A stretch of 64,000 nt of DNA, from contig JBGAUX010000002.1 of the NCBI GenBank assembly GCA_044228405.1, positions 1,805 through 65,804 on the forward strand, read 5' to 3'. The notes beneath the pieces were generated by a model that saw only the letters and a program-made list of their open reading frames with translations, searched no databases and had not been told where the DNA came from. Positions 6,075 through 56,905 of this stretch are shown piece by piece. Position 1 is the first letter of the stretch. The number at the start of each line of letters is the position of its first letter. Origin of the DNA: Candidatus Altimarinota bacterium (GTDB taxonomy: Bacteria > Patescibacteriota > Gracilibacteria > UBA1369 > JBGAUX01). Made by a program: the position numbers and the translations under genes.

Positions 6075-6084
6075 TTAAAAAAAG

Positions 6085-6714: not shown

Positions 6715-6720
6715 ATTAGA

Positions 6721-7029: not shown

Positions 7030-7031
7030 AC

Positions 7032-7865
7032 ATGGCGTTAAAAGTATACAAACCAACTACAAACGGCAGACGAGGAATGACATCCTCTACTTTCGATGAA
7101 ATAACAACCAACAAACCTGAAAAATCTCTATTAAGAGTAAAAATGAGAGGATCTGGTCGTAATTCACAAGGTAAAATCACTGTTAGACATCGTGGAGGAG
7201 GTGTAGCTAGAAAATATAGAGTAGTTGATTTCAAACAAACTGAAAAAATCGATATTCCAGCTAAAGTTGCAACTATCGAATACGATCCAAATAGAACTGC
7301 ATATATTATTTTGGCTCAATACGCGGATGGAGAAAAAAGATACCACATTGCACCACAAAACATTAAAGTTGGTGATAACATTATCACAAGCAAATCAGCA
7401 AAAATCGAAGTAGGAAACCGTATGATGATTAAACACATCCCGGTTGGATATAACATCTACAATGTAGAATTAACAGAAGGCAAAGGAGGACAAATCGTGC
7501 GTTCAGCCGGCTCATCTGCAAAACTAGTATCCCTAGAAACAGAAAGAGCACAAATACAATTACCATCAGGAGAAGTTCGTTTTATTAGCCAAAAATGTTA
7601 CGCTACTATCGGAATCGTTAGTAACCCGGAACAAATCAATATTAATGTTGGTAAAGCGGGTAGAACCAGATGGAAAGGTAGAAGACCGCAAGTAAGAGGT
7701 AAAGTTATGAATCCAGTAGACCATCCGCATGGAGGTGGTGAAGGTAATCAGTCAATTGGTTTGAAATATCCAAAAACGCCTTGGGGAATGCCGGCATTGG
7801 GTGTAAAAACTAGAAACAAGAGAAAATACAGTCAAAAATGGATTATCAAAAGACGTAAAAAATAA
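7032..7865 (+). CDS. rplB: 50S ribosomal protein L2
   Basis: 277 aa; ...VMNPVDHPHGGGEGNQSIG... L2 signature. Confidence 0.98.
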   Translation: MALKVYKPTTNGRRGMTSSTFDEITTNKPEKSLLRVKMRGSGRNSQGKITVRHRGGGVARKYRVVDFKQTEKIDIPAKVATIEYDPNRTAYIILAQYADGEKRYHIAPQNIKVGDNIITSKSAKIEVGNRMMIKHIPVGYNIYNVELTEGKGGQIVRSAGSSAKLVSLETERAQIQLPSGEVRFISQKCYATIGIVSNPEQININVGKAGRTRWKGRRPQVRGKVMNPVDHPHGGGEGNQSIGLKYPKTPWGMPALGVKTRNKRKYSQKWIIKRRKK

Positions 7866-7884
7866 TTTCTAACTAACCAATAAG

Positions 7885-8160
7885 ATGGCAAGAAGCTCAA
7901 AAAAAGGGCCATTCGTAGATCCGAGAATCATGAAGAAGGTGGTGAATATGAGTGCGAGTGATAAAAAACCTATCAAAACATGGTCAAGATCATGTGTTAT
8001 AGCACCAGAGTTTGTAGGACACACGTTCCTAGTTCACAACGGTAAAGAACATATTCCTGTATCAGTAAACGAAAATATGGTAGGACATAGATTAGGAGAA
8101 TTCTCCCCTACTAGAAAGTTCCGTGGTCATGGAGGAAAACTGGCCAAGTCACAAGGTTAA
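7885..8160 (+). CDS. rpsS: 30S ribosomal protein S19
   Basis: 91 aa; ...[39 protein letters not shown]. Confidence 0.97.
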
Positions 8161-8180
8161 ACTAAAAAATTAAATTCACG

Positions 8181-8648
8181 ATGAAATCAATACTTAGATA
8201 TAGCAGAATCTCACCTAAAAAAGCCAACTTAGTTGCTGGCATGGTGCGTAATATGGAAGTTAGAAAAGCTTTAGACACTCTAAAGTTTACCCCTAAAAAA
8301 GGTGCTGACATTCTATATAAAGTAGTAGCATCAGCTAACGCAAATGCTCAAAACAATTTTAAGCAAAAAGAAGAACATTTGTTTGTAGAAGAGATTATCG
8401 TAACAAAAGGACCTACACTAAAGAGACATGTTCCTGTATCTAGGGGCCGTGCACACCCAATTCTTAAGAGAACTTCGCACATTACAGTTAAACTGGGAAT
8501 ACACGTTGCACACGGCACAGGAAGAGCTAAAAAAGAAGATAAAGATGATTCAACCGAAGAAACTACTGAAAAAAAGGCGACAACTGCCAAGAAGGCAGCA
8601 ACTAAAAAGGTAACTGTAAAAAAAGCTAAATCTACAACTAAAAAGTAA
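8181..8648 (+). CDS. rplV: 50S ribosomal protein L22 with Lys/Thr/Ala-rich C-terminal tail
   Basis: 155 aa; L22 core covers about residues 1-106, then KKEDKDDSTEETTEKKATTAKKAATKKVTVKKAKSTTKK. Confidence 0.95.
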   Translation: MKSILRYSRISPKKANLVAGMVRNMEVRKALDTLKFTPKKGADILYKVVASANANAQNNFKQKEEHLFVEEIIVTKGPTLKRHVPVSRGRAHPILKRTSHITVKLGIHVAHGTGRAKKEDKDDSTEETTEKKATTAKKAATKKVTVKKAKSTTKK

Positions 8649-22106: not shown

Positions 22107-24938
22107 ATGAAAGCTTCAAACATTTTTATTGAACTCAAAAGTTCACCCCTTGGTTTAAGTGATGAACAAGCCAATTCTCTTTTAAGTGTCTACGGTGAAA
22201 ATGTATTAAAAGTTAAAAGAAGAAAGCCTCTTATACTTCAATTTTTAGAAGAATTCACCGATTTAATGGTGATAATATTAATATTTGCCTCAATTTTAGC
22301 CATTTATTCTGGTGAGCTAGTTGACGGTGTAGTGATACTTTTTATTGTAATTTTGAATGCGACCATCGGGTTTATTCAAAAATACAAAGCGGAAAAAGCT
22401 CTGGAAGCACTAAAAAAAATGATCGCGCCCCAAGCCAGAGTGTTGCGAAATGGGCGAGAAATGGCTATTAATGCAAGCAAACTAGTTCCGGGCGATATTT
22501 TAATCTTGAGTGAAGGCGACCAAATACCGGCGGACGGACGCATAATAGAAGAATACGAACTTGAGTGCCAAGAAGCCACCTTAAGTGGAGAATCCACTCC
22601 CGTAGCCAAAACTTCTACTTTAACAACTAAAAAAATGGCACCCTTGGAGGACAAAAACCGCATTTTTATGGGAACGGTTATTAGCCATGGTAGCGGAAAA
22701 GCCATTGTCACGCACACGGGTATGAAAACCGAATTCGGTAAAATAGCAGATTTAACGGTTTCTACAGAAAAAGAAAAAAGCCCTCTACAAAAGGAATTAT
22801 TTCGTATTGGAGTTTTTGTTGGCAAAATCACGCTTATTATTTCGAGCTTACTACTTTTAACTGGCATTTTTATTCAGGGAAACAGCTTTATTGATTCTTT
22901 ACTGTTTTCAATTTCTGTAGCTGTTGCTGCAGTGCCAGAGGGTTTACCGGCCACAGTAACCATTGCATTGGCTATTGGTGTGCAAAATTTAGTAAAGAAA
23001 AAAGCCATTGTTAAGCAACTTTCATCAGTGGAAACCCTTGGCTCTACCACGGTAATTTGTACCGACAAAACCGGCACTCTCACCAAAAATGAGATGACAG
23101 TAAAAGAAATGCATTTCGATTTATATGAAGCGTCAGTAAAAGGCTCTGGCTATGAACCAATTGGCACCATACCAATTCACACACCAGATAAAGGTATAGT
23201 AATTGTAGGTACAGAAGATAAGTATTATAGCGATTATGAAATTCATAAAAAGACACTTAAAGACATTCAACAAACACACGAAAAATTATATACATCGCTA
23301 GAGTTATTAATGAGTGCAGGCGCGATTTGTAACAATGCCAAGCTAGAAAGAAAAAACGATACCGTAGAAATGTTGGGCGATCCTACCGAGGGCGCAATTC
23401 TTACTGCTGTTGAAAAAAGTGGCTTCTCAATTGACGAAATCCTGGAGCAATATCATGTTTTGCACCAAATACCTTTCGATTCAACCAGAAAGAAAATGAC
23501 AGTTATTGTGCGCAACAAAGCGAGTAAAAAAGTTTTTGCTTTTATTAAAGGTGCACCCGATGAGGTAATTGTTAGCTGTAGTAATATTATTCTCAATAAT
23601 CGCAAACTCAAATTAGATACAGGCACAAAAAAAGACCTACTAAATAAAAATGCCGAATTGGCCGGCAAGGCACTAAGGGTAATTGGTTTTGGCTATAAAG
23701 AGCTACCCGATGCGCAAATTAATCAAGAATACAATAAAGACGAGATTGAAAAAGACATTACCTATATAGGAATGATGGGCATGATAGACCCACCCCGCCC
23801 AGATGTAGAAGAAGCAATAAAAAAAGCTAAAACAGCTGGTATTAAAATTTATGTAGTAACTGGCGACCACGGCCTAACAGCTCAGGCAATAGGAAAACAG
23901 TTAGATTTAATTAGCGATAAAAGACCCTTTGAAATTATCACTGGTGAAAAATTGGATGAACTCAGCGATTTAGATTTGCAAAATATGCTAACAAACAAAG
24001 AGCTAGACATTATCTTTGCGCGAGTTAGCCCTGAGCATAAGTTAAGAGTAGTAAGCCTTTTAAAACATCAGGGCGAAATTGTAGCTGTAACGGGCGACGG
24101 AGTGAATGACGCACCTGCACTTAAAAAAGCCGACATCGGCGTTGCTATGGGGGTTACAGGCACCGACGTTAGCAAGGAGGCAGCTAATATGATTCTTACA
24201 GACGACAGCTTTGCCAGTATTATTAGTGCCGTGGAAGAAGGGCGCAGAATATACATCAATTTGCGTAAGTTTATTTTCTACATTTTCTCCTGCAATGTGG
24301 GCGAAATTTTAACTGTTTTGGTAGGCATAATACTCAATTTACCAGCGCCCCTAACAGCCATATTAATACTAACTGTCGATTTAGGAACAGATGTTTTGCC
24401 AGCTTTAGCCATAGGTGTAGACCCGCCCGATGAAGGCCTCATGCAACAAAAGCCTCGTGACCCCAAAGCCCACATCATGAATAAAACCTTCGTATTGAGA
24501 TTTTTATTCAATGGTCTTTGCATTGGGATTATCGTCAGTGCAGTTTTTCTCTTTAACCTATTAAATGGCGGTTGGCATTGGGGAGAATCCTTAGCTCGTA
24601 CCGATAATTTATACCTCGAATCATCATCCATGGCATTCGCGCTTTTGGTGCTTATTCAAATGGTAAACGCCTACAATGTTCGTTCAGAAGAAAAATCAAT
24701 TTTCAAAATTGGCATCTTCAATAATTTATACTTATTAGGAGCAATAATGATTTCAATTATCATTGTAGTTAGTGTGGTTGAAATTCCGTTTATTCAAAAT
24801 TTTATGCACACTACTCACCTATCTTGGGATAAATGGCTACTCATCATTTTCGGGTCACTCACTATTTTGTTAATTGAAGAAATACGAAAATTTATCAAAC
24901 GAAATTTAGCAAAAACCAATGGAATACTTGCGAGTTAA
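22107..24938 (+). CDS. Cation-transporting P-type ATPase (P2 type, Ca2+/Mg2+-like)
   Basis: 943 aa; [41 protein letters not shown] motifs; about 10 TM segments. Confidence 0.93.
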   Translation: MKASNIFIELKSSPLGLSDEQANSLLSVYGENVLKVKRRKPLILQFLEEFTDLMVIILIFASILAIYSGELVDGVVILFIVILNATIGFIQKYKAEKALEALKKMIAPQARVLRNGREMAINASKLVPGDILILSEGDQIPADGRIIEEYELECQEATLSGESTPVAKTSTLTTKKMAPLEDKNRIFMGTVISHGSGKAIVTHTGMKTEFGKIADLTVSTEKEKSPLQKELFRIGVFVGKITLIISSLLLLTGIFIQGNSFIDSLLFSISVAVAAVPEGLPATVTIALAIGVQNLVKKKAIVKQLSSVETLGSTTVICTDKTGTLTKNEMTVKEMHFDLYEASVKGSGYEPIGTIPIHTPDKGIVIVGTEDKYYSDYEIHKKTLKDIQQTHEKLYTSLELLMSAGAICNNAKLERKNDTVEMLGDPTEGAILTAVEKSGFSIDEILEQYHVLHQIPFDSTRKKMTVIVRNKASKKVFAFIKGAPDEVIVSCSNIILNNRKLKLDTGTKKDLLNKNAELAGKALRVIGFGYKELPDAQINQEYNKDEIEKDITYIGMMGMIDPPRPDVEEAIKKAKTAGIKIYVVTGDHGLTAQAIGKQLDLISDKRPFEIITGEKLDELSDLDLQNMLTNKELDIIFARVSPEHKLRVVSLLKHQGEIVAVTGDGVNDAPALKKADIGVAMGVTGTDVSKEAANMILTDDSFASIISAVEEGRRIYINLRKFIFYIFSCNVGEILTVLVGIILNLPAPLTAILILTVDLGTDVLPALAIGVDPPDEGLMQQKPRDPKAHIMNKTFVLRFLFNGLCIGIIVSAVFLFNLLNGGWHWGESLARTDNLYLESSSMAFALLVLIQMVNAYNVRSEEKSIFKIGIFNNLYLLGAIMISIIIVVSVVEIPFIQNFMHTTHLSWDKWLLIIFGSLTILLIEEIRKFIKRNLAKTNGILAS

Positions 24939-28125: not shown

Positions 28126-31100
28126 TTATTCCGCTTGAACATCTCTAGTTAACAATAGTTCAAAAGCAGACTTAGCTCCGTATTTAACAATCAAATCATG
28201 AATCGAACTAATTTGTGAAGCATCAAAATCATCTACTCCATTATACAAATTCAATTGAATACTATCATCTCCTTGGCTCTCTAAGCCATCAAAACGTTCA
28301 TTTGCTTTCATTATTAACTCTCTAAAATCAGGCATTCTTTCTCTAATTAATCCAATATGGTTAAAAGGTACCCCTTCTTGTGTTATGCTTACATCTTTGG
28401 CCTCACATAAAGCAAGATGTCTAGACACCAAAGCCAAAACTAATAATTTATTATCAACATCTAATTTCTTAGCTAAAAAAAGAAGTTGATCTAAAACGTC
28501 ATATGTTTCTCTTAGTTCCTTTTCAGCATCAGCATGTTCCATTCCAACTGCCTGAAACAATTTTGATTCAACATAATTATAATACCCATAAATCCGAGTA
28601 CTATCCTGCCCTTCAGGTCTTTGTATACGAGCAATTTCTGTAGCAAAAGCTAGTAATTCAGAAAATACATCTTCTGGCATATCAGCTCTAGATAAATTTG
28701 CCGATGCCCCACAATACATATTAATCATGCTAGTTTCCGCGTCACTTGCTGAAACATTTGCCATATATTGAACAGCTATACTAATAAAATAAGCCTGTTG
28801 TGGACGAGGCAAATTTAAAAATGCTCCAGCAGTAAACCTAGCTGTAGCTGCACGAGCTTCAACAGCATAATCACCACTCAAAGATCTTCGTTGTCTAGCA
28901 ATCAACAAAGTAGTATTACATAACTCAATAATTCTAAACATATCGGCTTTTAATTGGTCATCAACTTGAATTTGCTGTGCAATAATAACTTCGTCAAAAT
29001 CCACACACTGCCTCCACCTTTGATGAATTAAAGCGGCTAATGTTTGAGAAACCTTAGCAATCATTATGTCTATTTTTTCTGAAGGCTGTGCTCGCTTTAA
29101 ACTTGCTAAAAAGCCTTCAGATGCACCAATTAACTCTTTGAATCTCACGTCAATTTGATGTTTTTTATCTACTTCTGAAGTTTCATCATCTATTTTTTGA
29201 ATCTCCATAACAACACTCTTGTACTGATGTTCAAGTTCACTATGTCCAATCATTAATTTTGCTCTTTCTCCAGCCTCCACAGCATCAACTCCCATATCAT
29301 CTGCAAATTTTCTTTCCACAAACATTGTCATACCTCTAATTACATTAGCCCAATTTTTAATTGCCTCCTTCATGCCATCTTGATTTCTATGCAATTCTTT
29401 TTCAATAAATTCTTGTCTATATAGTTCCAATTGAACCTCAACAAATTCAAACCGCATTGCCAACGGCAAGTGGTCTATCAATTGTTTTCGAGCAAGTGAC
29501 AATAAATGTTCTTTTCCTTTTTCCTTATCGTGGCTAAATAGATATGCCTTTGCTAAATAGAATCCTGCCTTAGCCTGATTATTTGTGTCGCCTTCATATT
29601 CAGCATAAGCATATTCAGCACATTCAATAACTTTTGCATAATCATGTTCATTAGTAGCCTCGTCTGCAGCGTTTAAAGCCCATTCTTTAGCAAGATTTTT
29701 ATCACCCAATCCTTTTGCTAAATCAAAAATCATCACTGCCTTAACATGTTGAGCCAAAGCCGGGTTTGCCTTTGCCATAATCAAGGCATCTAAAGCCGCC
29801 TTTCTCAGTTGAATATTAAGGGGGCTCCTTTGAAACGTTTCTGCCTCCATATCTTTTTGAAGCTCTCTAGCCCACAAATTATGCATACTCATATTTGTAT
29901 CAGCACTCAATATAGCTTCATCAAAACTAGGCCGATCAACTCTCATACGCATTTTATCTAATTGATCAGCAAATCTCCCATCGTCTCCAGGAAATAACTG
30001 TGAATTCAAAAAGCCAGCAACTTGTGGATCTTCAAGTACCCTGTAATCCACCCCGCTTAAAATATCAGCAAAATAAAGTAGCGTAATTTTAGGAATATCA
30101 TTCTTAGCACGGCTCAATTGGCTTGTATATATGCTTTCTGGTCCTCTTGGTAATTCACCTCTTTCAATAGCCTGCTTTGCTTGCGCAAATCTAGGACACC
30201 CAATAACACCCGTTTTTCCATTTAAAGTTAAATAATTCTTAGCAAGCAAGCTATCAACGATTATTCTCAATGTGTGAGCAGGTACCTTTGTTGCAGTATC
30301 ATGTACAGCTCCACCTTCACTCGACATCATTGCACACAATTCACCAATTTGAGTTAATATAGCTGTACTAATTCTGGCACCATTAGGCACATTGGGAGCA
30401 AAACAACGTTTCAACAAAAATTCCTCCAACCAATCAGCATATTCGCCTTCACTATTACGCAAAACAAATTCTGCAACTTCAATTTTTTCGCCCAAAAGAT
30501 CTTTCATTGCATCCACATACACTCTACTAACTTCTGACACCGCATGATCTTGACCAGATCTCACTGTACCAAAAATACTAATTCTCTTTAAGACTTCTTT
30601 ATTTAGCTTTAAAGATTCCATTAAGCCTTGCAAAACAGCCTGCATTTTTAAACCTGCAGCATCAAAATCATCCAACACCAAAATAAATTTGCCTTTTTTA
30701 CTCTCAAGAGAAGCACTTAAAATTTTGAAAGCATCTGTAAGTGCAGCAATCATTTCAGCCTCATTATAAACATAATTAGGGTCTCTTCTTCCATTTAAAT
30801 ATCTATTTAAAAGTTGAACACTAGCACCTTGTAATCCATTAGGAACATCAGCTCCAATGGCATTAACAAGCCCTTGAGCCAAATCCCTCAAAGCATCCAA
30901 GTTATCTTTATTTTTAAACGCTAAAACAATTCTATCTGTAGGGGATATATCTTCTTGAGTAGCGGCAACACGCAATACAACTGCTGTTTTACCAGCACCT
31001 GTAGGTCCTTGAAAATAACCTGTACTTAAACTGTCCTCAGAAGCCTGAAGCGCTGCCTCCAAAGCAGCCAATTCAGCTTTTCTGCCCACAAATTCAAATA

Positions 31101-32700
31101 CTTGACCAGCTTCCACTCTATCTCTAATCAAAGTTAGTTTTTGTACTGTAAACAAGCCTTCCCCTGCCGGTTGCGTCTCCATTTTAACAAATCTAGCACG
31201 CTTATCTCCTCCACTAAATTCATTAATCCTTTCATCCACATACATTTTCCCATCAAACCTCAAAGGTCCCATTTTTTCCGCTTCACGTGTCCAACTCGTA
31301 GTCACAAATGACGCAGCATTAGTTATCGAAACTTCTGCTTCAGCTTGAAACATACGAGCATCAAAATTAACTCGAGGATTATCTTTATGCTTCGCTCTCA
31401 ACATTGCAGTCATACTTCCAAGAACCAAAGATACATCTTCTGGTCTTTCTAAGGCAGTAGGATCTTGTAGATTAGTTATAGCTGTAAAAGTCCTCCCATT
31501 AATCAAGGGAATACAAGAATTCATCTCTGCAAAACGAATAAAATCAGCAATGATATTTTGCCACATTACCATATCGTTAGCATCAGTACCAAATTCAGGC
31601 GACAATGTTATAGAAGCCACAAAAGCCCTTCCAGAAGGAGCCGTATTAAGGTTCATAACATCTAAATTTCTAGAAACACCCTGTCGTTCTTTTGACAAGT
31701 CTATCAATGGCCTCTTATAAGAATATAGCGCAGTCATTTGCGGACGAAACTCTGAACCATGTTTTCTATCAACTGTGGTTTGATCATCACTATTTAGCGT
31801 ATTAACAAAACTCATAGCAGGACCATATAAGCTTACGCCAGCAGAATGCTCCATTGCATAAACACCATCTTCAACACAAATGTCGTGAACATTTTTCATT
31901 TTTTTAGCAAGAGTACTACGCTCACTCAAATCTGCAGCCATAACGAAAAGTGCTGCAACCGAGTCAGTTCCATCTATTTTTGTATGCCCCAAAAAACTTG
32001 CATACTCAGGCATACCTTCTACCTGCTGTCGTGGATTATCTAATTTAACGGCCACAACACACAAACCAGCTTGTGCCAAAGAAATAGGCTCGCTAGCAGT
32101 TTTATCAAAAAGTTTTGGGAAACCTTCAACTAATTTTTGTCCCGGGTAATTTTCCTTTTTAGTACCCATCAAAATATTTGCAGATGCCGAAACCGTATCA
32201 CGCACTGGCGCCACCCTTTCACTTGGTTGTCCAGGTGGAGTTGTCCTGCCAGCTCTACCTGCGGGCCTTTTAGTTACACGTCTAACACCGTCTCTTACAA
32301 CAGAAGTTGGTTCATAAAAAGTCTGTTGAGTGGATGTATGTATAGGCGCTCTAGTAGAAGCTTCTGTGGTTAAAGATTGGTTAGATGGTAGCATTTGTCC
32401 AATAGCCTCTATAGACAAAGCATTCACGTCAGCTTTATCTACAGCCATGTTTCCGTAAATATCAAAGGTGTAAACATCACCTCCTAAAACTGTAATCTTT
32501 GTGGTACCAGTCCTAGCAAAATGTTCTGTACTCTGCACAACCGGTAATCCACCAGGAATTCTATCATACATCGAAGTTAACCTGTCTGAAGAAACCGCAT
32601 CTTTACTACCCGGAAGTTTTCTTGCATCAGCAGCATATTGCTTGGCTAATTGATCTGCAGTCCAATTATTTGAAAGATCCACACCAGCATGCTTAACCAT
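28126..32700 (-). CDS. Giant STAND/AAA_16-type P-loop NTPase (1524 aa) with unknown N-terminal ~530-aa region and helical/TPR-like C-terminal region
   Basis: FVGRKAELAALEAAL at residues 537-551; Walker A GPTGAGKT at residues 565-572 (nt 30985-31008); Walker B FILVLDDFD at residues 672-680; C-terminal TPR-like segments such as AKAGFYLAKAYLFSHDKEKGKEHL. Confidence 0.85.
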   Translation of the reverse strand: MVKHAGVDLSNNWTADQLAKQYAADARKLPGSKDAVSSDRLTSMYDRIPGGLPVVQSTEHFARTGTTKITVLGGDVYTFDIYGNMAVDKADVNALSIEAIGQMLPSNQSLTTEASTRAPIHTSTQQTFYEPTSVVRDGVRRVTKRPAGRAGRTTPPGQPSERVAPVRDTVSASANILMGTKKENYPGQKLVEGFPKLFDKTASEPISLAQAGLCVVAVKLDNPRQQVEGMPEYASFLGHTKIDGTDSVAALFVMAADLSERSTLAKKMKNVHDICVEDGVYAMEHSAGVSLYGPAMSFVNTLNSDDQTTVDRKHGSEFRPQMTALYSYKRPLIDLSKERQGVSRNLDVMNLNTAPSGRAFVASITLSPEFGTDANDMVMWQNIIADFIRFAEMNSCIPLINGRTFTAITNLQDPTALERPEDVSLVLGSMTAMLRAKHKDNPRVNFDARMFQAEAEVSITNAASFVTTSWTREAEKMGPLRFDGKMYVDERINEFSGGDKRARFVKMETQPAGEGLFTVQKLTLIRDRVEAGQVFEFVGRKAELAALEAALQASEDSLSTGYFQGPTGAGKTAVVLRVAATQEDISPTDRIVLAFKNKDNLDALRDLAQGLVNAIGADVPNGLQGASVQLLNRYLNGRRDPNYVYNEAEMIAALTDAFKILSASLESKKGKFILVLDDFDAAGLKMQAVLQGLMESLKLNKEVLKRISIFGTVRSGQDHAVSEVSRVYVDAMKDLLGEKIEVAEFVLRNSEGEYADWLEEFLLKRCFAPNVPNGARISTAILTQIGELCAMMSSEGGAVHDTATKVPAHTLRIIVDSLLAKNYLTLNGKTGVIGCPRFAQAKQAIERGELPRGPESIYTSQLSRAKNDIPKITLLYFADILSGVDYRVLEDPQVAGFLNSQLFPGDDGRFADQLDKMRMRVDRPSFDEAILSADTNMSMHNLWARELQKDMEAETFQRSPLNIQLRKAALDALIMAKANPALAQHVKAVMIFDLAKGLGDKNLAKEWALNAADEATNEHDYAKVIECAEYAYAEYEGDTNNQAKAGFYLAKAYLFSHDKEKGKEHLLSLARKQLIDHLPLAMRFEFVEVQLELYRQEFIEKELHRNQDGMKEAIKNWANVIRGMTMFVERKFADDMGVDAVEAGERAKLMIGHSELEHQYKSVVMEIQKIDDETSEVDKKHQIDVRFKELIGASEGFLASLKRAQPSEKIDIMIAKVSQTLAALIHQRWRQCVDFDEVIIAQQIQVDDQLKADMFRIIELCNTTLLIARQRRSLSGDYAVEARAATARFTAGAFLNLPRPQQAYFISIAVQYMANVSASDAETSMINMYCGASANLSRADMPEDVFSELLAFATEIARIQRPEGQDSTRIYGYYNYVESKLFQAVGMEHADAEKELRETYDVLDQLLFLAKKLDVDNKLLVLALVSRHLALCEAKDVSITQEGVPFNHIGLIRERMPDFRELIMKANERFDGLESQGDDSIQLNLYNGVDDFDASQISSIHDLIVKYGAKSAFELLLTRDVQAE

Positions 32701-49230: not shown

Positions 49231-51207
49231 TTAAAGTTTATGCTCCTCTCGCAACATCTCAATTTCATCCCTTAAATCAGCCGCTTTTTCAAACTCCATA
49301 TTTTGTGAAGCCAAGTCCATTTGCACCTCTAACATATCCACAATCCGCTTAATTTCATCTTTTGGAACCTTATTTGGATCAAATTTTCTCTTTTTCCTGT
49401 CACTACCCTCTTTTTTACCCATACTTATGTCTTTAACAGCTTTAATAATGGTTTCAGGGGTAATGCCATGTGCCTCGTTATGCGCAACTTGCTTAGCTCT
49501 GCGCCTTTCAGTTTCTCCAATAGCCGCCTTCATCGCATCTGTCATTCTGTCGGCAAACATTGTTACATGCCCATTCACATTACGAGCAGCACGCCCAATA
49601 GTTTGAATTAAAGCCGAGGTAGAGCGCAAAAATCCTTGTTTATCGGCATCCATAATTGCAATAAACGAAACTTCAGGTAAATCCAATCCTTCTCTTAACA
49701 AGTTAATACCAACCAAAACATCAAATTTCCCAAGTCTCAAATCGCGCAAAATCTCAATACGCTCCATAGTATCAATGTCCGAATGTAAATATTTAACTTT
49801 AATACCAGCATCAGTTAAAAATTCTGTTAAATCTTCTGCCGATCGTTTAGTTAAAGTAGTGATCAAAACTCTTTCGTTACGCTTAACAGTTTCACTAATA
49901 TTCTTCAAAATATTCTCAATTTGCCCCTTAGAAGGGTGCACTTCTACCACTGGATCAATAAGACCAGTTGGCCTAATAACCAGTTCCACAACTTCTTTTC
50001 CAGACTTTTCAATTTCATATTTTGCAGGTGTAGCAGAAACATACACAGCTTGATTTATATGCTTTTCAAATTCTTCAAACTTAAGTGGACGATTATCATG
50101 AGCCGAAGGTAAACGAAATCCGTGCTCAATAAGCGTTTGTTTGCGCGAATAATTACCGTTATACATACCGCCAATTTGAGGAACGGTGATGTGTGATTCA
50201 TCAATAAACATCAAAAAATCATCAGGAAAATAATCCAACAAAGTAGCAGATTGTTCGCCTGGTTGACGCAAATTCAAGAAACGAGTGTAATTTTCTATAC
50301 CCGAACAATAACCGGTTTCTTGCAAAATTTCTAAGTCATACTCTGTTCTTGTTCTTAAACGCTCAGCCTCAATATTTTTGCCAATAGACCTTAAATAAGC
50401 GTATCTCTCCTCCATTTCTGCACGAATACCAGCAATAGCTCTCTCTACTTTTTCGCCAGTTGTTACATCATGTTTAGCTGGAAATATTTTAATTGATTGA
50501 AGTTCTTGCATTTCCTCGCCCGTAAAAGCATCAGCTTCAGTAATTCTTTCAATTTCATCACCAAAAAATTCAATACGGAAAATATTATCTCTATCTCGTG
50601 GAAAAATCTCAATCGTGTCGCCCAAAACATGAAACATACCATGTCTAAATTCCATTGCCGAGCGTGTATATTGCAAATCCGCCAAGTGGCGCAAAAGCTT
50701 ATCGCGCTTTCTTTCTTCACCAACCTTAATTTCTATAGCTAGGTTTTCGTAACTTTCAACAGAACCCAAGCCATAAATACACGATACAGAAGCCACAATT
50801 AGGGTGTCCTTTCTTGTTAAAAGGTTGATAGTTGCAGCATGACGGTACTTATCAATCTCTTCATTAATTGAGGCGTCTTTTTCAATATAGGTGTCGGAAC
50901 TCGGTAAATAGGCTTCTGGCTGATAATAATCATAGTAAGAAACAAAGTAGCTAACGGCATTATTTGGGAAAAATTCCTGAAACTCAGTACAAAGTTGAGC
51001 CGCCAAAGTTTTATTATGTGCTAAAACTATAGTTGGTTTTTGTACTTGTTGCACCACAGAAGCCATAACAAAAGTTTTTCCCGTACCAGTAGCACCCAAA
51101 ATTGTTTGATGTTTTTTGCCTTTGTTAACATTGTCCACAAGCCTTTCGATGGCTTTTGGCTGGTCACCTGCTGGTTGAAAATTGGAAACTAACTGAAATT
51201 TCTGCAT
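49231..51207 (-). CDS. uvrB: Excinuclease ABC subunit B
   Basis: I chose the ATG at 51207 (MQKFQLVSNFQPAGDQPKAIERLV...); GATGTGKT; C-terminal UVR domain ...FEKAADLRDEI... Confidence 0.95.
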   Translation of the reverse strand: MQKFQLVSNFQPAGDQPKAIERLVDNVNKGKKHQTILGATGTGKTFVMASVVQQVQKPTIVLAHNKTLAAQLCTEFQEFFPNNAVSYFVSYYDYYQPEAYLPSSDTYIEKDASINEEIDKYRHAATINLLTRKDTLIVASVSCIYGLGSVESYENLAIEIKVGEERKRDKLLRHLADLQYTRSAMEFRHGMFHVLGDTIEIFPRDRDNIFRIEFFGDEIERITEADAFTGEEMQELQSIKIFPAKHDVTTGEKVERAIAGIRAEMEERYAYLRSIGKNIEAERLRTRTEYDLEILQETGYCSGIENYTRFLNLRQPGEQSATLLDYFPDDFLMFIDESHITVPQIGGMYNGNYSRKQTLIEHGFRLPSAHDNRPLKFEEFEKHINQAVYVSATPAKYEIEKSGKEVVELVIRPTGLIDPVVEVHPSKGQIENILKNISETVKRNERVLITTLTKRSAEDLTEFLTDAGIKVKYLHSDIDTMERIEILRDLRLGKFDVLVGINLLREGLDLPEVSFIAIMDADKQGFLRSTSALIQTIGRAARNVNGHVTMFADRMTDAMKAAIGETERRRAKQVAHNEAHGITPETIIKAVKDISMGKKEGSDRKKRKFDPNKVPKDEIKRIVDMLEVQMDLASQNMEFEKAADLRDEIEMLREEHKL

Positions 51208-51279
51208 TAACGCGTATAATAATGGAATTTGACACCAAACCACTCTAATGATTTTATGATAAAAGTTCAAGTTCTATCT

Positions 51280-52050
51280 ATGATTGATATTAATTCCACA
51301 TTGGAATTCGTTAAAAATTTAGCTGTAGAAACGGGTAAAATGACCCTCGAAGCTCAAAATAAAGATTTTGAAGTTAGCTTTAAAAGTGCCAAAAACTTGG
51401 TTACAGAAGTGGATTTAGCGGCAGAAAAGATGATTACCGAGGCTATTGAGGCCCAATTTCCCGATCATAATATTTTAGGAGAGGAGGAAGGCCAAAAGGC
51501 CAAAAACAGCGATTACGACTGGATTATCGATCCAATAGATGGAACGACTAACTTTGCACACAAACACCCGTTTTACGGCGTTTCTATAGCTCTGTACCAT
51601 AAGCAGACACCTATAATAGGCGTGGTTTACGCCCCCTACCTAAAAGAGCTCTTTTGGGCGAGTAAAGGTGGCGGCGCCTACTTAAACGATAAAAAAATAG
51701 CTATTTCTAGCGTTACAGACCCTACACAAATGCTAACTTGCACCGGTTTCCCATCTAAGAATCGTGAAGAAAACTTAGTATATTTGCATAAAATGATAGC
51801 AACAGCCCAGGCTGTGCGCCGTTGTGGCGCCGCCACCCTCGATTTTTGCTATGTAGCCTGCGGTCGTTACGATACTTTTTGGGAAATTGGCCTGCAACCC
51901 TGGGATATTGCTGCGGGTCGTTTAATTTTAGAAGAAGCGGGCGGTATTTTAACTCAATTAAGCGGAGAACCAATTAAAGTATTCGAAAAACAATCCATTT
52001 TAGCTGGCAACCAAAAACTCCATCAAGTTATTTTAGACTTATTCAAATAA
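51280..52050 (+). CDS. suhB: Inositol monophosphatase family protein (SuhB-like)
   Basis: WIIDPIDGTTNF and ...AATLDFCYVACGRYDTFWE motifs; start uncertain (51229, 51256 or 51280). Confidence 0.85.
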   Translation: MIDINSTLEFVKNLAVETGKMTLEAQNKDFEVSFKSAKNLVTEVDLAAEKMITEAIEAQFPDHNILGEEEGQKAKNSDYDWIIDPIDGTTNFAHKHPFYGVSIALYHKQTPIIGVVYAPYLKELFWASKGGGAYLNDKKIAISSVTDPTQMLTCTGFPSKNREENLVYLHKMIATAQAVRRCGAATLDFCYVACGRYDTFWEIGLQPWDIAAGRLILEEAGGILTQLSGEPIKVFEKQSILAGNQKLHQVILDLFK

Positions 52051-52052
52051 AA

Positions 52053-52072
52053 ATGGTGTCCACGGCGGGATT
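52053..52072. repeat. 20-nt direct repeat of the tRNA-Arg 3' end (att-like distal boundary)
   Basis: ATGGTGTCCACGGCGGGATT at 52053-52072 is identical to 56136-56155 (tRNA acceptor/T-stem 3' portion plus CCA), in the same orientation. Confidence 0.85.
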
Positions 52073-52082
52073 GACTACTAAG

Positions 52083-52478
52083 CTATTTGAAATTTATTGC
52101 AAAATTATACATACCCATACTGCAAAGACCTTGCAGTTTTCCGGATTGCGTTGTACCCAAATCAATAACCTCTTCTCCCGTTGGTGGTAAAACATTGCTA
52201 TAGCCGATTGCTTTGATCACCAATGCTGCCGAACAATCGTATGTGCCGTTTGTTTTGACGATCAATTTTGTTGGTATGTTTGCTTGCGCCGTAGAGACTT
52301 TGGGCGAGTATCCACCACGAGCATTTATGGTAACATACTGAATACCATCTCTTATTTCGACATTTTGCGTGGACTGAGTGCCAGTTGAATCCAGATTTTT
52401 ATTTGACTGTCCAAAAAACACAATACCAATGCCTATGGCAAGCACGACCGTGATGATAACTGAAGTAGTTTTATTCAT
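52083..52478 (-). CDS. Membrane-anchored cupredoxin-like domain protein
   Basis: 131 aa; N-terminal TM helix; ...GGYSPKV...IPTKLIVKTNGTYDCSAALVI...GKLQGLCSMGMYNFAINF resembles Cupredoxin_1-type proteins found beside copA. Confidence 0.7.
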   Translation of the reverse strand: MNKTTSVIITVVLAIGIGIVFFGQSNKNLDSTGTQSTQNVEIRDGIQYVTINARGGYSPKVSTAQANIPTKLIVKTNGTYDCSAALVIKAIGYSNVLPPTGEEVIDLGTTQSGKLQGLCSMGMYNFAINFK

Positions 52479-52485
52479 ATACTAA

Positions 52486-53493
52486 TTATATGTTAAATAG
52501 CGGATTAATGATTCCGAGCCCGGCGAGTCCCGACAAAAGAGCAAACAGTCCAAGGCCAATTACAACAATGCCGGCTGATTTAAAAAACAAAGGAGCATGT
52601 TTACCTTGGGCAAACGAAGCTGATCCAAACGAAAGAAACGCGAGCATCGGCAATGTTCCGAGAGCGAACGCAAACATTATCAAAAGACCTGCCAGGAAAG
52701 ATCCACTGCTAAGCGAGGCAACCTGCATTGATTGCGTGAAGCCACAAGGCAAGAAAAATGTAGCAAAACCCAGAGTAAGGGGTGTTAAAGTTTTGTGCTC
52801 AATGCGCCTAAAAAAGTTAAACAGCCCTAAAGGCAATGCGATTTTATTTTTTGCAAACACCCCAACCAGGTTTAAACCCAAAAGCAACATTACTAACGAT
52901 GCCAAGAGTCCCAATATTGCCGTAAATGTAAAATTAATACCTATTGCGCTACCTATTACCCCAAGCACTCCTCCCAAGACTGCAAAGCCAACAAGTCTTG
53001 CCGTATGAAAAAGCACGAAAGTCTTTGTGTCGCTCACATTGTCCTGCGATATCTTTGCCGAGAGCGACAAGACAAGTCCGCCAACGATAGCAAGACAGCT
53101 TGAAACCGATGCGATTAAGCCGATGATAAAGCTGGTGACAGGAGTTATTTGCCCACCGATTCCGATATTGAGAATGCCTGATTTTTGAAGCAGGAAAAAC
53201 AAAATCAAAAATCCGAAGCCTATCGGCAAGGCTTGCCAAATCACATCCCCATTCGGTTTTCCTTTTGCCAGTCTTTCAACCGACACAATATACCCATTCG
53301 ATTGAATTTTACTTGTCAGAACTTGTGCAAGTTCTTCGGAAGTTCGACTATCATCGGTTTCAATTTGCAAAACTTCTTTCTTTAAATCAACTCGAGCATT
53401 TTGAATAAAATCCTGCTCGTTTAAAGCGTCTTCGATAAAGATTTTGCATGACGGGCAATGAGTGCCTGATACATAAAAAGTATATGTATTCAT
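52486..53493 (-). CDS. Heavy-metal-associated (HMA) domain fused to a multi-pass membrane domain (DsbD_2/TauE-like) with paired Cys motifs
   Basis: 335 aa; N-terminal GTHCPSC HMA fold; membrane part has SSCLAIVGG and FFLPCGFTQ motifs. Confidence 0.8.
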   Translation of the reverse strand: MNTYTFYVSGTHCPSCKIFIEDALNEQDFIQNARVDLKKEVLQIETDDSRTSEELAQVLTSKIQSNGYIVSVERLAKGKPNGDVIWQALPIGFGFLILFFLLQKSGILNIGIGGQITPVTSFIIGLIASVSSCLAIVGGLVLSLSAKISQDNVSDTKTFVLFHTARLVGFAVLGGVLGVIGSAIGINFTFTAILGLLASLVMLLLGLNLVGVFAKNKIALPLGLFNFFRRIEHKTLTPLTLGFATFFLPCGFTQSMQVASLSSGSFLAGLLIMFAFALGTLPMLAFLSFGSASFAQGKHAPLFFKSAGIVVIGLGLFALLSGLAGLGIINPLFNI

Positions 53494-53495
53494 AG

Positions 53496-55790
53496 TTATA
53501 ATTTTTTGGTTTTAATTCGGAGCGAGTTCGAAACTACTGACACCGACGACATTGCCATGGCAAATCCGGCAAAAATTGGGTTTAGCACCCAGCCAAAGAT
53601 CGGATAGAAAACTCCCGCAGCCAGTGGAATGCCCACAATATTGTATATAAAAGCCCAAAATAGATTTTGTTTGATACCTCTCATTGTGATCTTGGAAAGA
53701 TTGATCGCTTTGACCAATTTTGAGATGTCTCCGCCCAAAAGAGTAATACCGGCTGATTCTATAGCCACATCTGTTCCCGTACCCATGGCAATACCTATAT
53801 CGGCCTGTGCGAGAGCGGGAGCATCATTCACGCCATCGCCCGCCATTGCAATTGTCCTACCTGTGCGTTGAAGTAGCTGTATTTTTTCAAGCTTATCTTG
53901 AGGTAACACATGAGCAACAACATCATCAATACCTACGAGCGAAGCGATATACTTAGCGGCTTTTTCGTCGTCACCTGTGAGCATAACAACTTTAATCCCC
54001 AGTTTATGGAGATCGGCAACGGCTTGCTTCGCCTCCTCCTTTATTTCATCGGCCACCATCACAAAACCGAGCACCTTTTCTTTTGTTGCAAGAATAACAG
54101 GTGTTTTGCCTTGTGAAGTGAACTCATTCAATTTTGCAGAATCAAAAGGAAGTTTTAGGTCACTTACAAGCTTTGCATTACCAACAAAGTATTCGGTTTC
54201 CTGAATTGAACCTTTTAGGCCTTTACCCTGTATCGCTTCAAATTCTGAAGTCTCCAACAACGAGATCTTTTTTTCTTTTGCATAGTTTACAATCGCATGT
54301 GCAATTGGATGCTCGGACTTCTTCTCTAATGAAGCGATAATCGACACCAGCTCATCATCATTCAAATCGGAGATGTTCTGCACATCTACCAAAGTCGGTT
54401 TACCTTTGGTAATCGTTCCGGTTTTATCAACTACAACAGTGTCTACCTTGTGAAGTTTTTCGAGAGTAGCCGCATCTTTAATGAGAATACCCTCTTTTGC
54501 CCCCTTGCCAACTCCCACAATAATAGCGGTTGGCGTGGCAAGTCCGAGAGCGCATGGACATGCAATTACAAGAATTCCAACAAATGAGACGAGGCCGAAT
54601 GAAAGCGCCTGTGAAAATCCCAAGTATTGCGAACCTATAACGAGCCAGGCGCCGAGTGTAAGAAAAGCGAACACAAGCACAATAGGAACAAATACAGCAG
54701 AAATTTTATCCGCCAATGCCTGAATAGGTGCCTTGCTTCCTTGAGCCTCCTCAACCATCTTAACAATCTGAGCAAGCAAAGTTTTAGAGCCTACTTTTGT
54801 AGCCTTAAATGTGAATGAACCACTGGTGTTAATAGTCCCGGACACAACACTATCGCCAACTTTTTTTTGTGCAGGCATTGGTTCTCCGGTCACCATTGAT
54901 TCATCAATAAAAGAACTTCCTTCGGTTATAACACCATCCACTGGAATTTTTGCCCCGGGTTTAACAATAATTAAATCTCCGTATTTCACATCATTTACCG
55001 GGATTTCCACCTCTTTGCCGTCTCGAATAACAAGCGCGGTTTTAGCCTGTAGATTGAGAAGTTTTTCAATGGCATCCCCTGTTTTTGTCTTTGAACGTGC
55101 CTCAAGGTATTTTCCGAGAGTAATAAAAGTAATAACAACAATAGTTACATCATAATATTGGTATTCAACATTTATAAAAGGCCTAAGTATATCCTCAAAA
55201 GCGCTAACGGCAAAACTGTATAGAAAGGCTGCAACCGTGCCGATGCCGATCAGCGTATCCATGTTGGCCTTGCCATATCGAAGAAATCGATAAAAACCAA
55301 GCAAATACGGCTTACCAACAACGAAAAGAATATATGTCGCAAACACAGGAAGTAGATGATGAAAAAATTCTTCCAGCGTATAGCTCATTTCAGAGACAAT
55401 GCCATATTTGGCAAGGATCTCCCAAACCATAACGAGAGCCGCAAAAATCGCGATAGGGATCGCTGAAAGCACCTTTGTTCGCATATCAGCCACCTCGGCC
55501 AGCTTTTCTTTTTTTGATTGGTTTAGTCCCAGATGAGCAGCGTGCTCGTCGGCCGACATACCCATTTCCTCGGCTGTTGCGGGAATCTCCAAAGAATACC
55601 CCAAGGGCTCAATATGCTTTGAAAGCTCCTGCGGATTTGTTTTTGACGGATCAAAAGAAACTTTGGCTTTTTCCGTGCCATAGTTTACTTCGGCCGATTG
55701 TACGCCTGTAATTTTTTTGAAAGTCTTTTCTATAACCGATGAACATGAGGCACAGTGCATTCCTTTAACTTTATAAGTTTGTGTATGCAT
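53496..55790 (-). CDS. copA: Copper-exporting P1B-type ATPase
   Basis: I chose the ATG at 55790 ([21 protein letters not shown]...); [17 protein letters not shown] and [10 protein letters not shown] motifs; the track start at 55913 lies inside csoR. Confidence 0.95.
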
Positions 55791-55791
55791 A

Positions 55792-56067
55792 TTATTTTCT
55801 CTTAAGTTTATAAACTTTAATAATTTCCTCCTTAGCTTTTTGGGTTTGGCCGGATTGCACCTGATGAACAACACAGTGACCAAGGTGATTTTCAAGAAGT
55901 AAGTCTTCAACATTAGACAAGCCCTGTTTTACTGCCGATGTCTGGGTAATCACATCAATGCAATAAGTATCGTTTTCCACCAATCGTTGAAGCCCCCGAA
56001 CCTGACCTTCTAAAAGCTTGAGTCGGCGCACCACTTTCACCTTACTGTTATCGTCCATGTATTTCAT
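55792..56067 (-). CDS. csoR: CsoR/RcnR-family metal-sensing transcriptional repressor
   Basis: About 91 aa from the ATG at 56067 (56058 is an alternative); ...[29 protein letters not shown]...NHLGHC... (Cys plus H-x3-C ligand pattern); stop is 1 nt before the copA ATG. Confidence 0.88.
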
Positions 56068-56072
56068 ATGAA

Positions 56073-56105
56073 ACAAGCATACCCCCAGGGGGGTATGCTT
56101 GTCAA
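56073..56105 (-). promoter_or_regulatory. csoR-copA promoter with an embedded 14+14 bp palindromic operator
   Basis: Palindrome ACAAGCATACCCCC-AG-GGGGGTATGCTTGT at 56073-56102. Minus strand reads TTGACA (56105-56100), 18-nt spacer, TATGCT (56081-56076). The -10 ends 8 nt before the ATG at 56067. Confidence 0.7.
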
Positions 56106-56136
56106 ATTCTTTCAACTTTTTCGCTCAACTTTATTA

Positions 56137-56213
56137 TGGTGTCCACGGCGGGATTCGAACCCACGACCTCAGCCTTCGCAGGGCTGCGCTCTATCCAGCT
56201 GAGCTACGTGAAC
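56137..56213 (-). tRNA. tRNA-Arg, anticodon GCG, CCA encoded
   Basis: Reverse complement folds as GTTCACG-TA-GCTC-AGCTGGATA-GAGC-G-CAGCC-CTGCGAA-GGCTG-AGGTC-GTGGG-TTCGAAT-CCCGC-CGTGGAC-A-CCA; a clean cloverleaf with an Arg-type D-arm. Confidence 0.92.
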
Positions 56214-56272: not shown

Positions 56273-56905
56273 CTACGCACGCAAACTGGCTATAGCTTTT
56301 TTTCTATCTTTCGAACCAAATATATAAGAACCCGCAACTAAAATGTTTGCCCCTGCCTCTATGGCAATTTTTGCAGTTTCTGCAGTAACGCCCCCATCCA
56401 CTTCAATATCTAAATTTGGCATCAATTCTCGCAATTCAATAATTTTTGGCACTGCATTTTCAATAAATGATTGGCCTCCAAAGCCAGGATTAACCGTCAT
56501 AATCAATACTTGATCCAAATCTTCCAATACATTTTCTAAAGTCACCAAAGAAGTAGCTGGATTTAAAGAAACTCCAACTTTCACTCCATAATCTTTTATT
56601 TGATGAATAATTCTGTGCAAATGTGTACAAGCTTCTTGATGCACAATAATCAATTTAGCGCCTGCATCAACAAAATCTTTAATGTAATCTTGTGGTCTTT
56701 GAATCATCAAATGCGCTTCCATCAACAATTTTGTCTTGATCATACGCATAATTGGCGCACCCAAAGTAATATTTGGCACAAAATGACCATCCATAACATC
56801 TACATGTAATCTGTCACAATAAGGCTCCACTGTTTTAATATCAGCGTTTAAATTGCCGAAATCAGCAGAAAGTATTGAAGGTGCAATTTGAATTTTTGGT
56901 TTCAT
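56273..56905 (-). CDS. rpe: Ribulose-phosphate 3-epimerase
   Basis: 210 aa; ...IAPSILSADFGNL...HVDVMDGHFVPN...MTVNPGFGGQ... Confidence 0.95.
   Translation of the reverse strand: MKPKIQIAPSILSADFGNLNADIKTVEPYCDRLHVDVMDGHFVPNITLGAPIMRMIKTKLLMEAHLMIQRPQDYIKDFVDAGAKLIIVHQEACTHLHRIIHQIKDYGVKVGVSLNPATSLVTLENVLEDLDQVLIMTVNPGFGGQSFIENAVPKIIELRELMPNLDIEVDGGVTAETAKIAIEAGANILVAGSYIFGSKDRKKAIASLRA

Follow-up and report, generated by a model that had tools for sequence, protein, structure and literature searches.

We examined a 64,000-nt stretch of contig JBGAUX010000002.1 from a Candidatus Altimarinota bacterium (hereafter the window), in which a copper-resistance islet lies between suhB and a gene for tRNA-Arg(GCG). 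The islet is bounded by two exact copies of a 20-nt direct repeat that corresponds to the 3′ end of the tRNA gene, it is compositionally foreign, and it contains only csoR, copA, a gene for a membrane protein with HMA and DsbD_2 domains (HMA–DsbD_2) and a cupA-like gene. We consider it probable that a circle bearing this cassette integrated site-specifically at the 3′ end of tRNA-Arg and that the recombinase module was lost afterwards.

Two exact copies of the 20-mer ATGGTGTCCACGGCGGGATT are present in the window, both on the + strand (positions in Table 1); no further copy was found in the 64 kb at up to three mismatches, and none is expected by chance (100 shuffles). The proximal copy is made up of one flanking base and the final 19 nt of tRNA-Arg, the sole tRNA gene of the window, and its tRNA part takes in the end of the T-loop, the 3′ strand of the T-stem, the 3′ strand of the acceptor stem and the terminal ACCA. 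The distal copy begins 2 nt past the stop codon of suhB (TAA, 52048-52050) and, followed on the tRNA strand, runs into a T-run and then the end of suhB. This arrangement had been pointed out in an earlier reading of the sequence alone (the sequence-only reading), and the sequence itself, ARAGORN and Rfam all bear it out. After the ACCA, the native flank in a relative (contig L135) is TTTTTTT, that of the distal copy is TTTTT and that of the proximal copy is TAATAAAG, a pattern that would be expected if the distal copy were the displaced original tail, to which it points weakly. The acceptor stem of the window tRNA-Arg has a U3-G70 wobble pair compared with a Watson–Crick U3-A70 pair in the relative (L135, 8674-8750); the G70 state is present in both repeat copies of the window, and position 37 is A in the window tRNA and G in that of L135.

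Between the repeat copies are 4063 bp with four co-directional genes on the minus strand, separated by gaps of 1, 2 and 7 nt, so that the gene content and tight spacing described in the sequence-only reading stand, with its cupredoxin now recognized as CupA-type. The GC content of this interval is 42.0% compared with 36.7% in the rest of the window (z=3.3), which is above that of all 518 other segments of 4063 bp (maximum 40.0%), and its tetranucleotide distance of 0.255 lies outside the range of the other segments (0.171±0.017, maximum 0.210). At third codon positions the GC content (GC3) of the four islet genes is 0.37–0.40, whereas sampled native genes range from 0.13 to 0.34 with suhB (0.37) as the sole exception. 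These data clearly show that the interval is compositionally foreign; the difference in GC that had been judged by eye is real, and the tetranucleotide profile is an outlier as well. In other genomic contexts the GC content of the cassette is steady at 42–45.5%, with flanks that vary from 34% to 46%.

The cassette is also shared in a manner that does not follow the host. CopA is 87–92% identical to more than 100 database proteins, some of them labelled by their depositors as Parcubacteria, Paceibacterota, Ryanbacteria, Pacebacteria or Minisyncoccota and one as Oligoflexales, whereas the SuhB of the window is only 35–38% identical to that of Nealsonbacteria, Paceibacterota, Nomurabacteria, Brennerbacteria and Staskawiczbacteria genomes. 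The best organism-named matches of the housekeeping proteins are from Peregrinibacteria (SuhB 47%, Rpe 64–65%), and the host would appear to be a Peregrinibacteria-like bacterium of the Candidate Phyla Radiation (CPR). Three independent loci (contigs L140-L148, L149/L150 and L151) have the same four genes in the same order and with the same lengths and spacing as the window, to which they are 77–80% identical at the nucleotide level over approx. 4029 nt (window 52081-56107). The homology ends on one side at the −35 box (56107) and on the other 2 nt past the cupA stop codon (52081), and these are the limits of the cassette. Judged from these comparisons, the divergence of the cassette appears far below that of its hosts, a horizontal origin of the islet is strongly supported, and csoR–copA–(HMA–DsbD_2)–cupA seems to be a four-gene module that circulates among CPR/Patescibacteria genomes. 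There are no orthologues common to the window and the fetched flanks of the cassette-bearing loci, so no direct housekeeping comparison could be made between them. In plasmid and phage databases the whole cassette was not found, only partial similarity to copA (64–68%), and keyword searches of a paper library returned no published description of this cop cassette in CPR. The horizontal acquisition proposed in the sequence-only reading thus agrees with the presence of the cassette in unrelated contexts; its remark that such an event would be notable in a tiny genome does not, as the relatives of CopA suggest that it is very common among CPR.

These observations bear directly on the simplest alternative, namely that the cop operon is native and vertically inherited and that the 20-nt repeat reflects a duplication that is either fortuitous or structural. 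The islet is indeed present in all of the conspecific contigs, and suhB is itself relatively GC-rich at third positions. However, the exact 20-mer is precisely the 3′ end of the tRNA, for which no chance occurrence is expected, the interval is a compositional outlier, genus-level relatives have no operon at this locus, and the cassette retains 77–80% nucleotide identity in unrelated contexts, whereas housekeeping proteins are 35–50% identical. We regard this reading as effectively refuted and its chances as very slim.

In addition, the contexts in which the cassette was found elsewhere are informative about how it may have arrived. In L140-L148 the cassette is positioned 62 nt downstream of tRNA-Val(CAC), past the terminator of the tRNA, and has no recombinase. 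In L149/L150 the order is tRNA-His, a 531-aa large serine recombinase, an HTH protein, a regulator, the cassette and dsbB, and the 3′ end of the recombinase gene overlaps tRNA-His. L156-L165 have a large serine recombinase of 520–541 aa and a non-coding-looking segment of 393 nt before csoR, and the unit in L157 begins exactly at the CCA end of tRNA-Ser(GGA). The recombinases of L149, L156 and L157 match the Resolvase, Recombinase and Zn_ribbon_recom domains; in NCBIfam, CcrB is the best match for the L157 enzyme, and XisF the best and CcrB the second for that of L149, all far below the curated cutoffs. Overall, four of the five independent contexts begin at, or within approx. 60 nt of, a tRNA 3′ end (Arg, Val, His and Ser), and in the tRNA-linked contexts csoR is always the cassette gene nearest the tRNA and is transcribed in the same direction as it. 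By our estimate, which takes a few dozen tRNA genes per genome of approx. 1 Mb and is not a computed probability, this association is far beyond chance. The tRNA 3′-end integration footprint recognized in the sequence-only reading fits these data and is reinforced by the sister elements.

The sisters also suggest what the islet may have lost. In two contexts (L149 and L157) the recombinase module is located exactly between the tRNA and csoR, and in the window this position is occupied only by the 28-nt linker; a deletion of the recombinase module after integration would therefore be the most likely history. On this anatomy, a circular element with a copy of the last 12–20 nt of tRNA-Arg would have recombined with the 3′ end of the chromosomal tRNA-Arg(GCG) gene at a time when tRNA-Arg and suhB lay tail-to-tail. 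The tRNA would now be completed by the copy that the element brought, and the original tail with its T-run would have been displaced by 4083 bp to the suhB side. The empty-site junction predicted from these steps is ...TTATTCAAATAAAA-ATGGTGTCCACGGCGGGATT-CGAACCCACGACC..., and the predicted circle junction, in the orientation of the cassette, is ...AAATAGCTTAGTAGTC-AATCCCGCCGTGGACACCAT-AATAAAGTTGAGCG....

The absence of a recombinase was examined by a Pfam screen of 27 larger open reading frames (ORFs) of the window, i.e. the four islet genes, suhB, rpe, uvrB and 20 others. None matched a recombinase or transposase family, five of them having no match at all, and no large serine recombinase (Resolvase plus Recombinase plus Zn ribbon) was present among the screened ORFs; the islet itself, as had been said before, has no integrase among its four genes. 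Searches of IMG/VR returned no viral contig with the tRNA-derived 19-mer and no relatives of the HMA–DsbD_2 protein. One phage-like contig of that database (L155, IMGVR_UViG_3300048073_000092) encodes a ParB/methyltransferase protein, a large terminase, a portal and a MuF-like head protein, directly followed at 5849-8412 by csoR (35%), copA (75%) and a gene for a secreted beta-propeller; this cop operon could be either phage-borne or phage-adjacent. We considered L155 as the attP-bearing element and rejected it, since its cop operon is a different one, with csoR at 35%, copA at 75% and another downstream gene.

The sequence-only reading had left it open whether the islet is decayed or mobilized in trans, and a still-mobile islet has to be weighed at this point. 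In its narrow form, a minimal unit of 4083 bp (the cassette plus one 20-nt att core) would move with a recombinase supplied from elsewhere in the genome or by a co-resident element. Such a unit would account for the perfect repeat in the window and in the conspecific contig L001, for att copies that hug the cargo with linkers of 8 and 28 nt, and for the occurrence of a recombinase-less cassette beside a tRNA at least twice (window and L140); elements that combine this cargo with a recombinase directed at tRNA 3′ ends do exist in the same bacterial group, and discrete cassette-sized contigs of approx. 4080 nt recur in many assemblies. However, the same site is occupied in five of five conspecific contigs, one junction allele has a degraded repeat (16/20), no recombinase family was matched in the Pfam screen, and neither tRNA-derived repeats in other contexts nor the 19-mer in IMG/VR were found. 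In addition, the contigs of approx. 4080 nt end in inverted and not direct sequences, hence they are no circles. Taken together, we judge a still-mobile minimal unit to be unlikely.

Those contigs deserve description in their own right. Many other CopA variants come from contigs of approx. 4080–4087 nt, which we considered as excised circles and rejected as such, because their ends are reverse complements with no direct overlap. In one of them (L151 1-4083, a Logan contig from 11 samples) the 30-nt ends are exact reverse complements, GCGCGGCGGTTTCGGGTTTCGGATTTGACA, a length equal to k−1. The cassette there is either bordered by inverted repeats of at least 30 nt or contained in a GC-rich palindrome. 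At its termini the cassette subfamily has short inverted motifs: ATTTGACA, identical with the −35 box, and TGTCAAAT, located 1–8 nt past the cupA stop codon; the inverted motif is perfect over 12 nt in L140 (7682-7693 and 11708-11719), extends over at least 30 nt in L151, and is imperfect in the window (6–8 nt, TTGAC/GTCAA, 52070-52075 and 56101-56108). These motifs may serve as a signal in recombination or may simply coincide with promoter sequence. They leave some room for a broader proposal, in which the unit of approx. 4.03 kb is itself a recombinase-less mobile module of CPR/Patescibacteria with short terminal inverted repeats, moved in trans either by CcrB/XisF-like serine recombinases with tRNA 3′ ends as their targets or by some other enzyme. 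Sites next to tRNA genes, within palindromes and amid long inverted repeats would then all be landing sites of this module, with the window as one case that has kept usable att sites on its flanks; we regard this as a minor possibility.

For one variant of the cassette, present-day movement is demonstrable. A 7.74-kb unit with identical CopA (L157 3739-11479; also L156 and L158-L165) is 99.4–100% identical in at least four different flanking contexts. It contains the large serine recombinase, csoR, copA, a YncE-like beta-propeller gene, HMA–DsbD_2 and cupA. In L157 the recombinase gene is flanked by a perfect inverted repeat of 120 nt (3740-3859/5261-5380) and the cop genes by one of 277 nt (5377-5653/11195-11471), and both come from the 393-nt non-coding-looking segment, which is called as a ‘145-aa ORF’; this layout suggests that the unit comprises two parts, which either invert or move on their own. 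To its left, one insertion of this element is flanked by a defence-type cluster (L156 16-3634, 34% GC) with genes for an MmeI-like N6 methyltransferase/Eco57I and a ThsB-like TIR protein.

To return to integration followed by loss of the recombinase module, the conspecific contigs show how the islet has fared since. In five of five contigs with a SuhB at least 90% identical to that of the window (L001, which belongs to GCA_964555445.1, L002, L003 and two short contigs) the islet occupies this same site, i.e. it is fixed in the sampled population. Both repeat copies are perfect in L001. In L002 and L003, however, the distal position reads ATGGTGTCCACGACAGATTT, which matches at 16 of 20 positions (four substitutions) and of which 12 contiguous nt, CGTGGACACCAT, still match the tRNA terminus. 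The junction thus occurs in two allelic forms, with no conservation of the distal copy. Compared with the window, L002 and L003 are diverged along one tract, in which the four substitutions lie, by 3.5–6% (uvrB 4.0%, suhB 6.0%, cupA 3.5%), and by only approx. 0.5% in copA, HMA–DsbD_2 and atpD and 0% in LOG, a mosaic that indicates a homologous-recombination tract across the islet junction (window 49231-52478). The L002/L003 allele has GTCAAAT at the cassette tail, as in the tail motif of other cassette copies, so it may be the older of the two, and the perfect 20-mer of the window may stem from conversion against the tRNA. As to whether the islet is decayed or mobilized in trans, the evidence leans towards decayed or fixed, and it is now probably an immobile relic of selected cargo, fixed in this species.

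In another reading the repeat is older than the cassette: an earlier element would have left the tRNA tail, and the cassette would have come later, in place of the former cargo, by homologous or illegitimate recombination or by transposition through its short terminal inverted repeats. The cassette subfamily does end in an inverted motif peculiar to it, ATTTGACA...TGTCAAAT, at the limits of homology in L140 and L151, the conserved tail with GTCAAAT that L002/L003 keep may run into the repeat, and tRNA-linked islands often gather successive insertions and partial tRNAs (bioRxiv 10.1101/2020.12.28.424599). Against this, nothing but the cassette is present between the copies, with no remnant genes and non-cassette DNA amounting to only 36 nt; apart from the tRNA-derived repeat, which with its 20 nt is unlike a target-site duplication, no such duplication is seen, and no transposase was found; and the inverted motif on the left is no more than the −35 box. 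We consider this order of events quite improbable.

Relatives that lack the islet were examined for the state of the locus before insertion. Genus-level relatives (SuhB 65–75%, UvrB 89%) keep the order atpD-atpC-LOG-uvrB-suhB, after which there is a co-directional gene for a Cys-rich protein; downstream of suhB they have no cop genes and no tRNA fragment. L135, a contig recovered from the sample of one of these relatives, has tkt-prs-rpiB-rpe, a DUF6364/PIN toxin–antitoxin pair and tRNA-Arg(GCG), the last in the same orientation to rpe as in the window; the two arms of the window locus are not adjacent in this relative. The relatives thus have no cop genes after suhB, CopA is discordant with the housekeeping proteins, and the 20-mer is not dispersed, in each case the opposite of what the sequence-only reading had listed as telling against it. 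The empty site that it proposed to look for, with suhB directly next to tRNA-Arg, was not found in these relatives, in which suhB is followed by a different gene.

A number of points, beginning with that empty site, weigh against integration followed by loss of the recombinase module. None of the available relatives showed suhB and tRNA-Arg joined directly as a clean empty site; the tRNA-Arg contig of the relative ends 95 nt past the tRNA, and the relatives recovered by protein searches are represented by short Logan contigs, which reach the junctions at most with their ends. The insertion is therefore an event that we infer and did not observe. SuhB searches of the genome contig collection, in which the lineage of the window is absent, gave nothing closer than 46%, and Rpe searches of metagenome contigs nothing closer than 56%. 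In the more distant L137 and L004, tRNA-Arg(GCG) is next to suhB in the opposite orientation, and the locus has undergone rearrangement in this clade. An origin of the distal fragment from an ancestral tRNA-Arg co-directional with suhB, as in L137 and L004, was rejected, since the fragment points the other way.

The repeat copies are also only 8 and 28 nt from conserved cassette sequence, which leaves little room for arm-type sites and would have called for a precise deletion if a recombinase module was lost. No tRNA-derived direct repeats were found around the cassette in L140, L149 or L157, and among the contexts compared the 20-nt repeat is unique to the lineage of the window. The recombinase could be of either class, serine or tyrosine, as a repeat of this kind is classic for tyrosine integrases but the sister elements have serine recombinases. 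Serine-recombinase elements such as the staphylococcal cassette chromosome (SCC) also leave repeats of 15–18 nt. The Pfam screen covers the 64-kb window and not the rest of the genome, and the taxonomy of the hosts is that of the depositors' labels. Finally, third codon positions are only 44–55% identical between cassette variants, which is near saturation, comparable with uvrB of the window and a genus-level relative, and yields no age estimate for the acquisition; this argues that the variants are not recent copies of one another.

Some observations on the relatives concern the surroundings of the locus. The window homologue of the Cys-rich gene is at 2984-4654 on the minus strand, 47 kb away, between a 270-aa ORF (2175-2987, downstream of tuf) and a ribosomal-protein cluster (rplC at 5490). 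It encodes a protein of 556 aa with repeated CxxC-type motifs, for which Pfam gives only a weak match to a treble-clef zinc finger, and its homologues (46% identity) are immediately 3′ of suhB in L084 (6975-7304), L086 (1116-2450) and L087 (860-1933). The displacement of this gene marks a rearrangement with a breakpoint that coincides with the islet. The DUF6364/PIN pair between rpe and tRNA-Arg in relatives (L135 7941-8616; L136 2700-2751) is accompanied by a palindromic operator-like sequence, and the window has no such pair.

The function of the cassette can be read from its gene families. CopA scores 608 bits against the curated copper P1B-ATPase model TIGR01511 (cutoff 397), and its translation has the HMA CxxC, CPC, DKTGT and GDGVNDAP motifs all intact. 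The HMA part of the HMA–DsbD_2 protein is similar to CopZ and to the N-terminal domains of CopA, and no characterized counterpart of the protein was found. The ‘cupredoxin’ has a hydrophobic N-terminus and matches pneumococcal CupA (PDB 4F2E/2MRY; phmmer E=2e-6), with the upstream cysteine residue of the copper site aligned and CSMGM set against CGMNM (a CxMxM motif), and the fourth gene therefore encodes a homologue of this membrane-anchored Cu(I) chaperone. Upstream of csoR is a sigma-70-like promoter with a spacing of 18 nt between its hexamers, and between the −35 and −10 is a GC-rich palindrome of 14+14 nt, ACAAGCATACCCCC/GGGGGTATGCTTGT (56073-56102). This is presumably an operator of the CsoR type in the usual CsoR layout, and we treat it as a predicted operator.

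Together, the gene families and the promoter/operator layout argue that the cassette is a self-contained, self-regulated Cu(I) efflux unit. CsoR would occupy the palindrome, which overlaps the sigma-70-type promoter belonging to the cassette, until Cu(I) binding releases it. CopA, from its family, would pump Cu(I) out, and the membrane-anchored CupA-type chaperone would feed or buffer Cu(I) at the membrane; the derepressed operon would also yield the HMA–DsbD_2 membrane protein, to which we assign no role. Well-studied relatives of this system are copY-cupA-copA of Streptococcus pneumoniae and the csoR-regulated cop operons of Bacillus and Mycobacterium. The islet resembles these in its Cu(I)-sensing repressor, its P1B-1 ATPase, a CupA chaperone with Cys...CxMxM and the GC-rich palindrome at the promoter. 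It differs from the S. pneumoniae operon by a repressor of the CsoR and not the CopY type, by the extra HMA–DsbD_2 protein, and by a CopA N-terminus that is an HMA and not a cupredoxin domain.

Recombinase-less cargo between short repeats has counterparts in other bacteria. In staphylococci, ccr-less elements of the SCC type (pseudo-SCC, ACME and COMER/copXL) are located at the 3′ end of rlmH with direct repeats of 15–20 nt. Cis-mobilisable elements (CIMEs) derived from ICESt1/ICESt3 of Streptococcus thermophilus are thought to have arisen by deletion from complete integrative elements. The islet shares with the ccr-less SCC elements a repeat-bounded cargo that includes copper resistance, placed at the 3′ end of a conserved gene with no recombinase of its own, and complete members of that family use large serine recombinases; its target, however, is a tRNA 3′ end and not rlmH, and the Ccr match of its sisters is far below the family cutoff. 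With CIMEs it has in common that it is att-flanked and devoid of recombination and transfer genes, but there is no adjacent complete element and no accretion structure. In its working the islet may be likened to ccr-less SCC cassettes or CIMEs, and its mobilization in trans is hypothetical. An association of copXL with SCCmec has been described in staphylococci (PMC5947656).

As set out for the Islander database (Hudson, Lau and Williams 2015, PMC4383910), islands in tRNA genes (tDNA islands) have an intact tRNA and a displaced 3′ fragment. Both were found here, the intact tRNA at one end and the displaced 3′ tRNA fragment as a direct repeat at the other, and the cargo is compositionally foreign as in such islands. 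Unlike them, the islet has no integrase, is pure cargo and at 4.1 kb is far below the typical size, and its sister elements have large serine and not tyrosine recombinases. With the boundaries of a tDNA island and no integrase, the locus is so best described as a recombinase-less island remnant. The Tycheposons of Prochlorococcus (bioRxiv 10.1101/2020.12.28.424599) are tRNA-targeting cargo elements, a minority of them with large serine recombinases, which leave partial tRNAs and recombinase-less remnants in islands. The likeness lies in a streamlined host, tRNA-targeting cargo and degenerate tRNA-flanked remnants in islands; the host phylum and the cargo differ, and the islet has no replication module.

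In itself, the window locus is an ordinary recombinase-less genomic islet with a well-understood function. Its significance is that CPR/Patescibacteria have tiny genomes in which mobile DNA has been little described, and the locus shows acquisition of the standard island type there. With CopA identities of 87–92% across many CPR lineages, the cop cassette is in addition a concrete and traceable marker of gene flow. In some CPR lineages it is borne by small serine-recombinase elements that still move, which offer a candidate family of tRNA-targeting serine integrases. The features of the locus are collected in Table 1.

Table 1. Features of the copper-resistance islet and its flanks (positions refer to the window)
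Feature	Position	Strand	Evidence or comment
suhB (inositol monophosphatase), native left flank	51256..52050	+	Pfam PF00459, E=1e-69; exact protein from the 51256 start found in the collection
Distal repeat copy (attR-like)	52053..52072	-	Displaced 3′-terminal 19 nt of tRNA-Arg + 1 nt; exact 20-mer
cupA-like, putative membrane-anchored cupredoxin-fold Cu(I) chaperone, 131 aa	52083-52478	-	Pfam Cupredoxin_1, E=1.6e-8
HMA-domain + DsbD_2 (CcdA-like) membrane protein, 335 aa	52486-53493	-	Pfam PF13386, E=1e-27; PF00403, E=5e-10
copA, P1B-1 Cu(I)-exporting ATPase, 764 aa	53496-55790	-	Pfam E1-E2_ATPase, Hydrolase, HMA; true ATG at 55790
csoR, copper-sensing repressor, 91 aa	55792-56067	-	Pfam PF02583, E=1.6e-23; best NCBIfam match RicR, under its cutoff
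Cassette promoter + predicted operator	56073..56105	-	−35 TTGACA (56105-56100), −10 TATGCT (ending 56076); promoter scan 10/12
Linker from tRNA 3′ end to cassette, 28 nt	56108..56135	-	Sequence; comparison with L149 and L157
Proximal repeat copy (attL-like)	56136..56155	-	Within intact tRNA-Arg
tRNA-Arg(GCG), intact, target gene	56137..56213	-	ARAGORN; Rfam 67.8 bits
rpe (ribulose-phosphate 3-epimerase), native right flank	56273..56905	-	Pfam PF00834, E=2e-70

Three further observations were made in passing. In L140 the 5′ half of tRNA-Val is present a second time in partial form (7493-7534), just upstream of the intact tRNA-Val (7549-7621) that precedes the cassette, and this copy may be the scar of an earlier recombination there. 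The window encodes a second P-type ATPase at 22107-24938 on the + strand (943 aa), which is not of the copper type and has weak similarity to CopA, and an AAA_16/STAND-like ATPase of 1524 aa at 28126-32700 on the minus strand.

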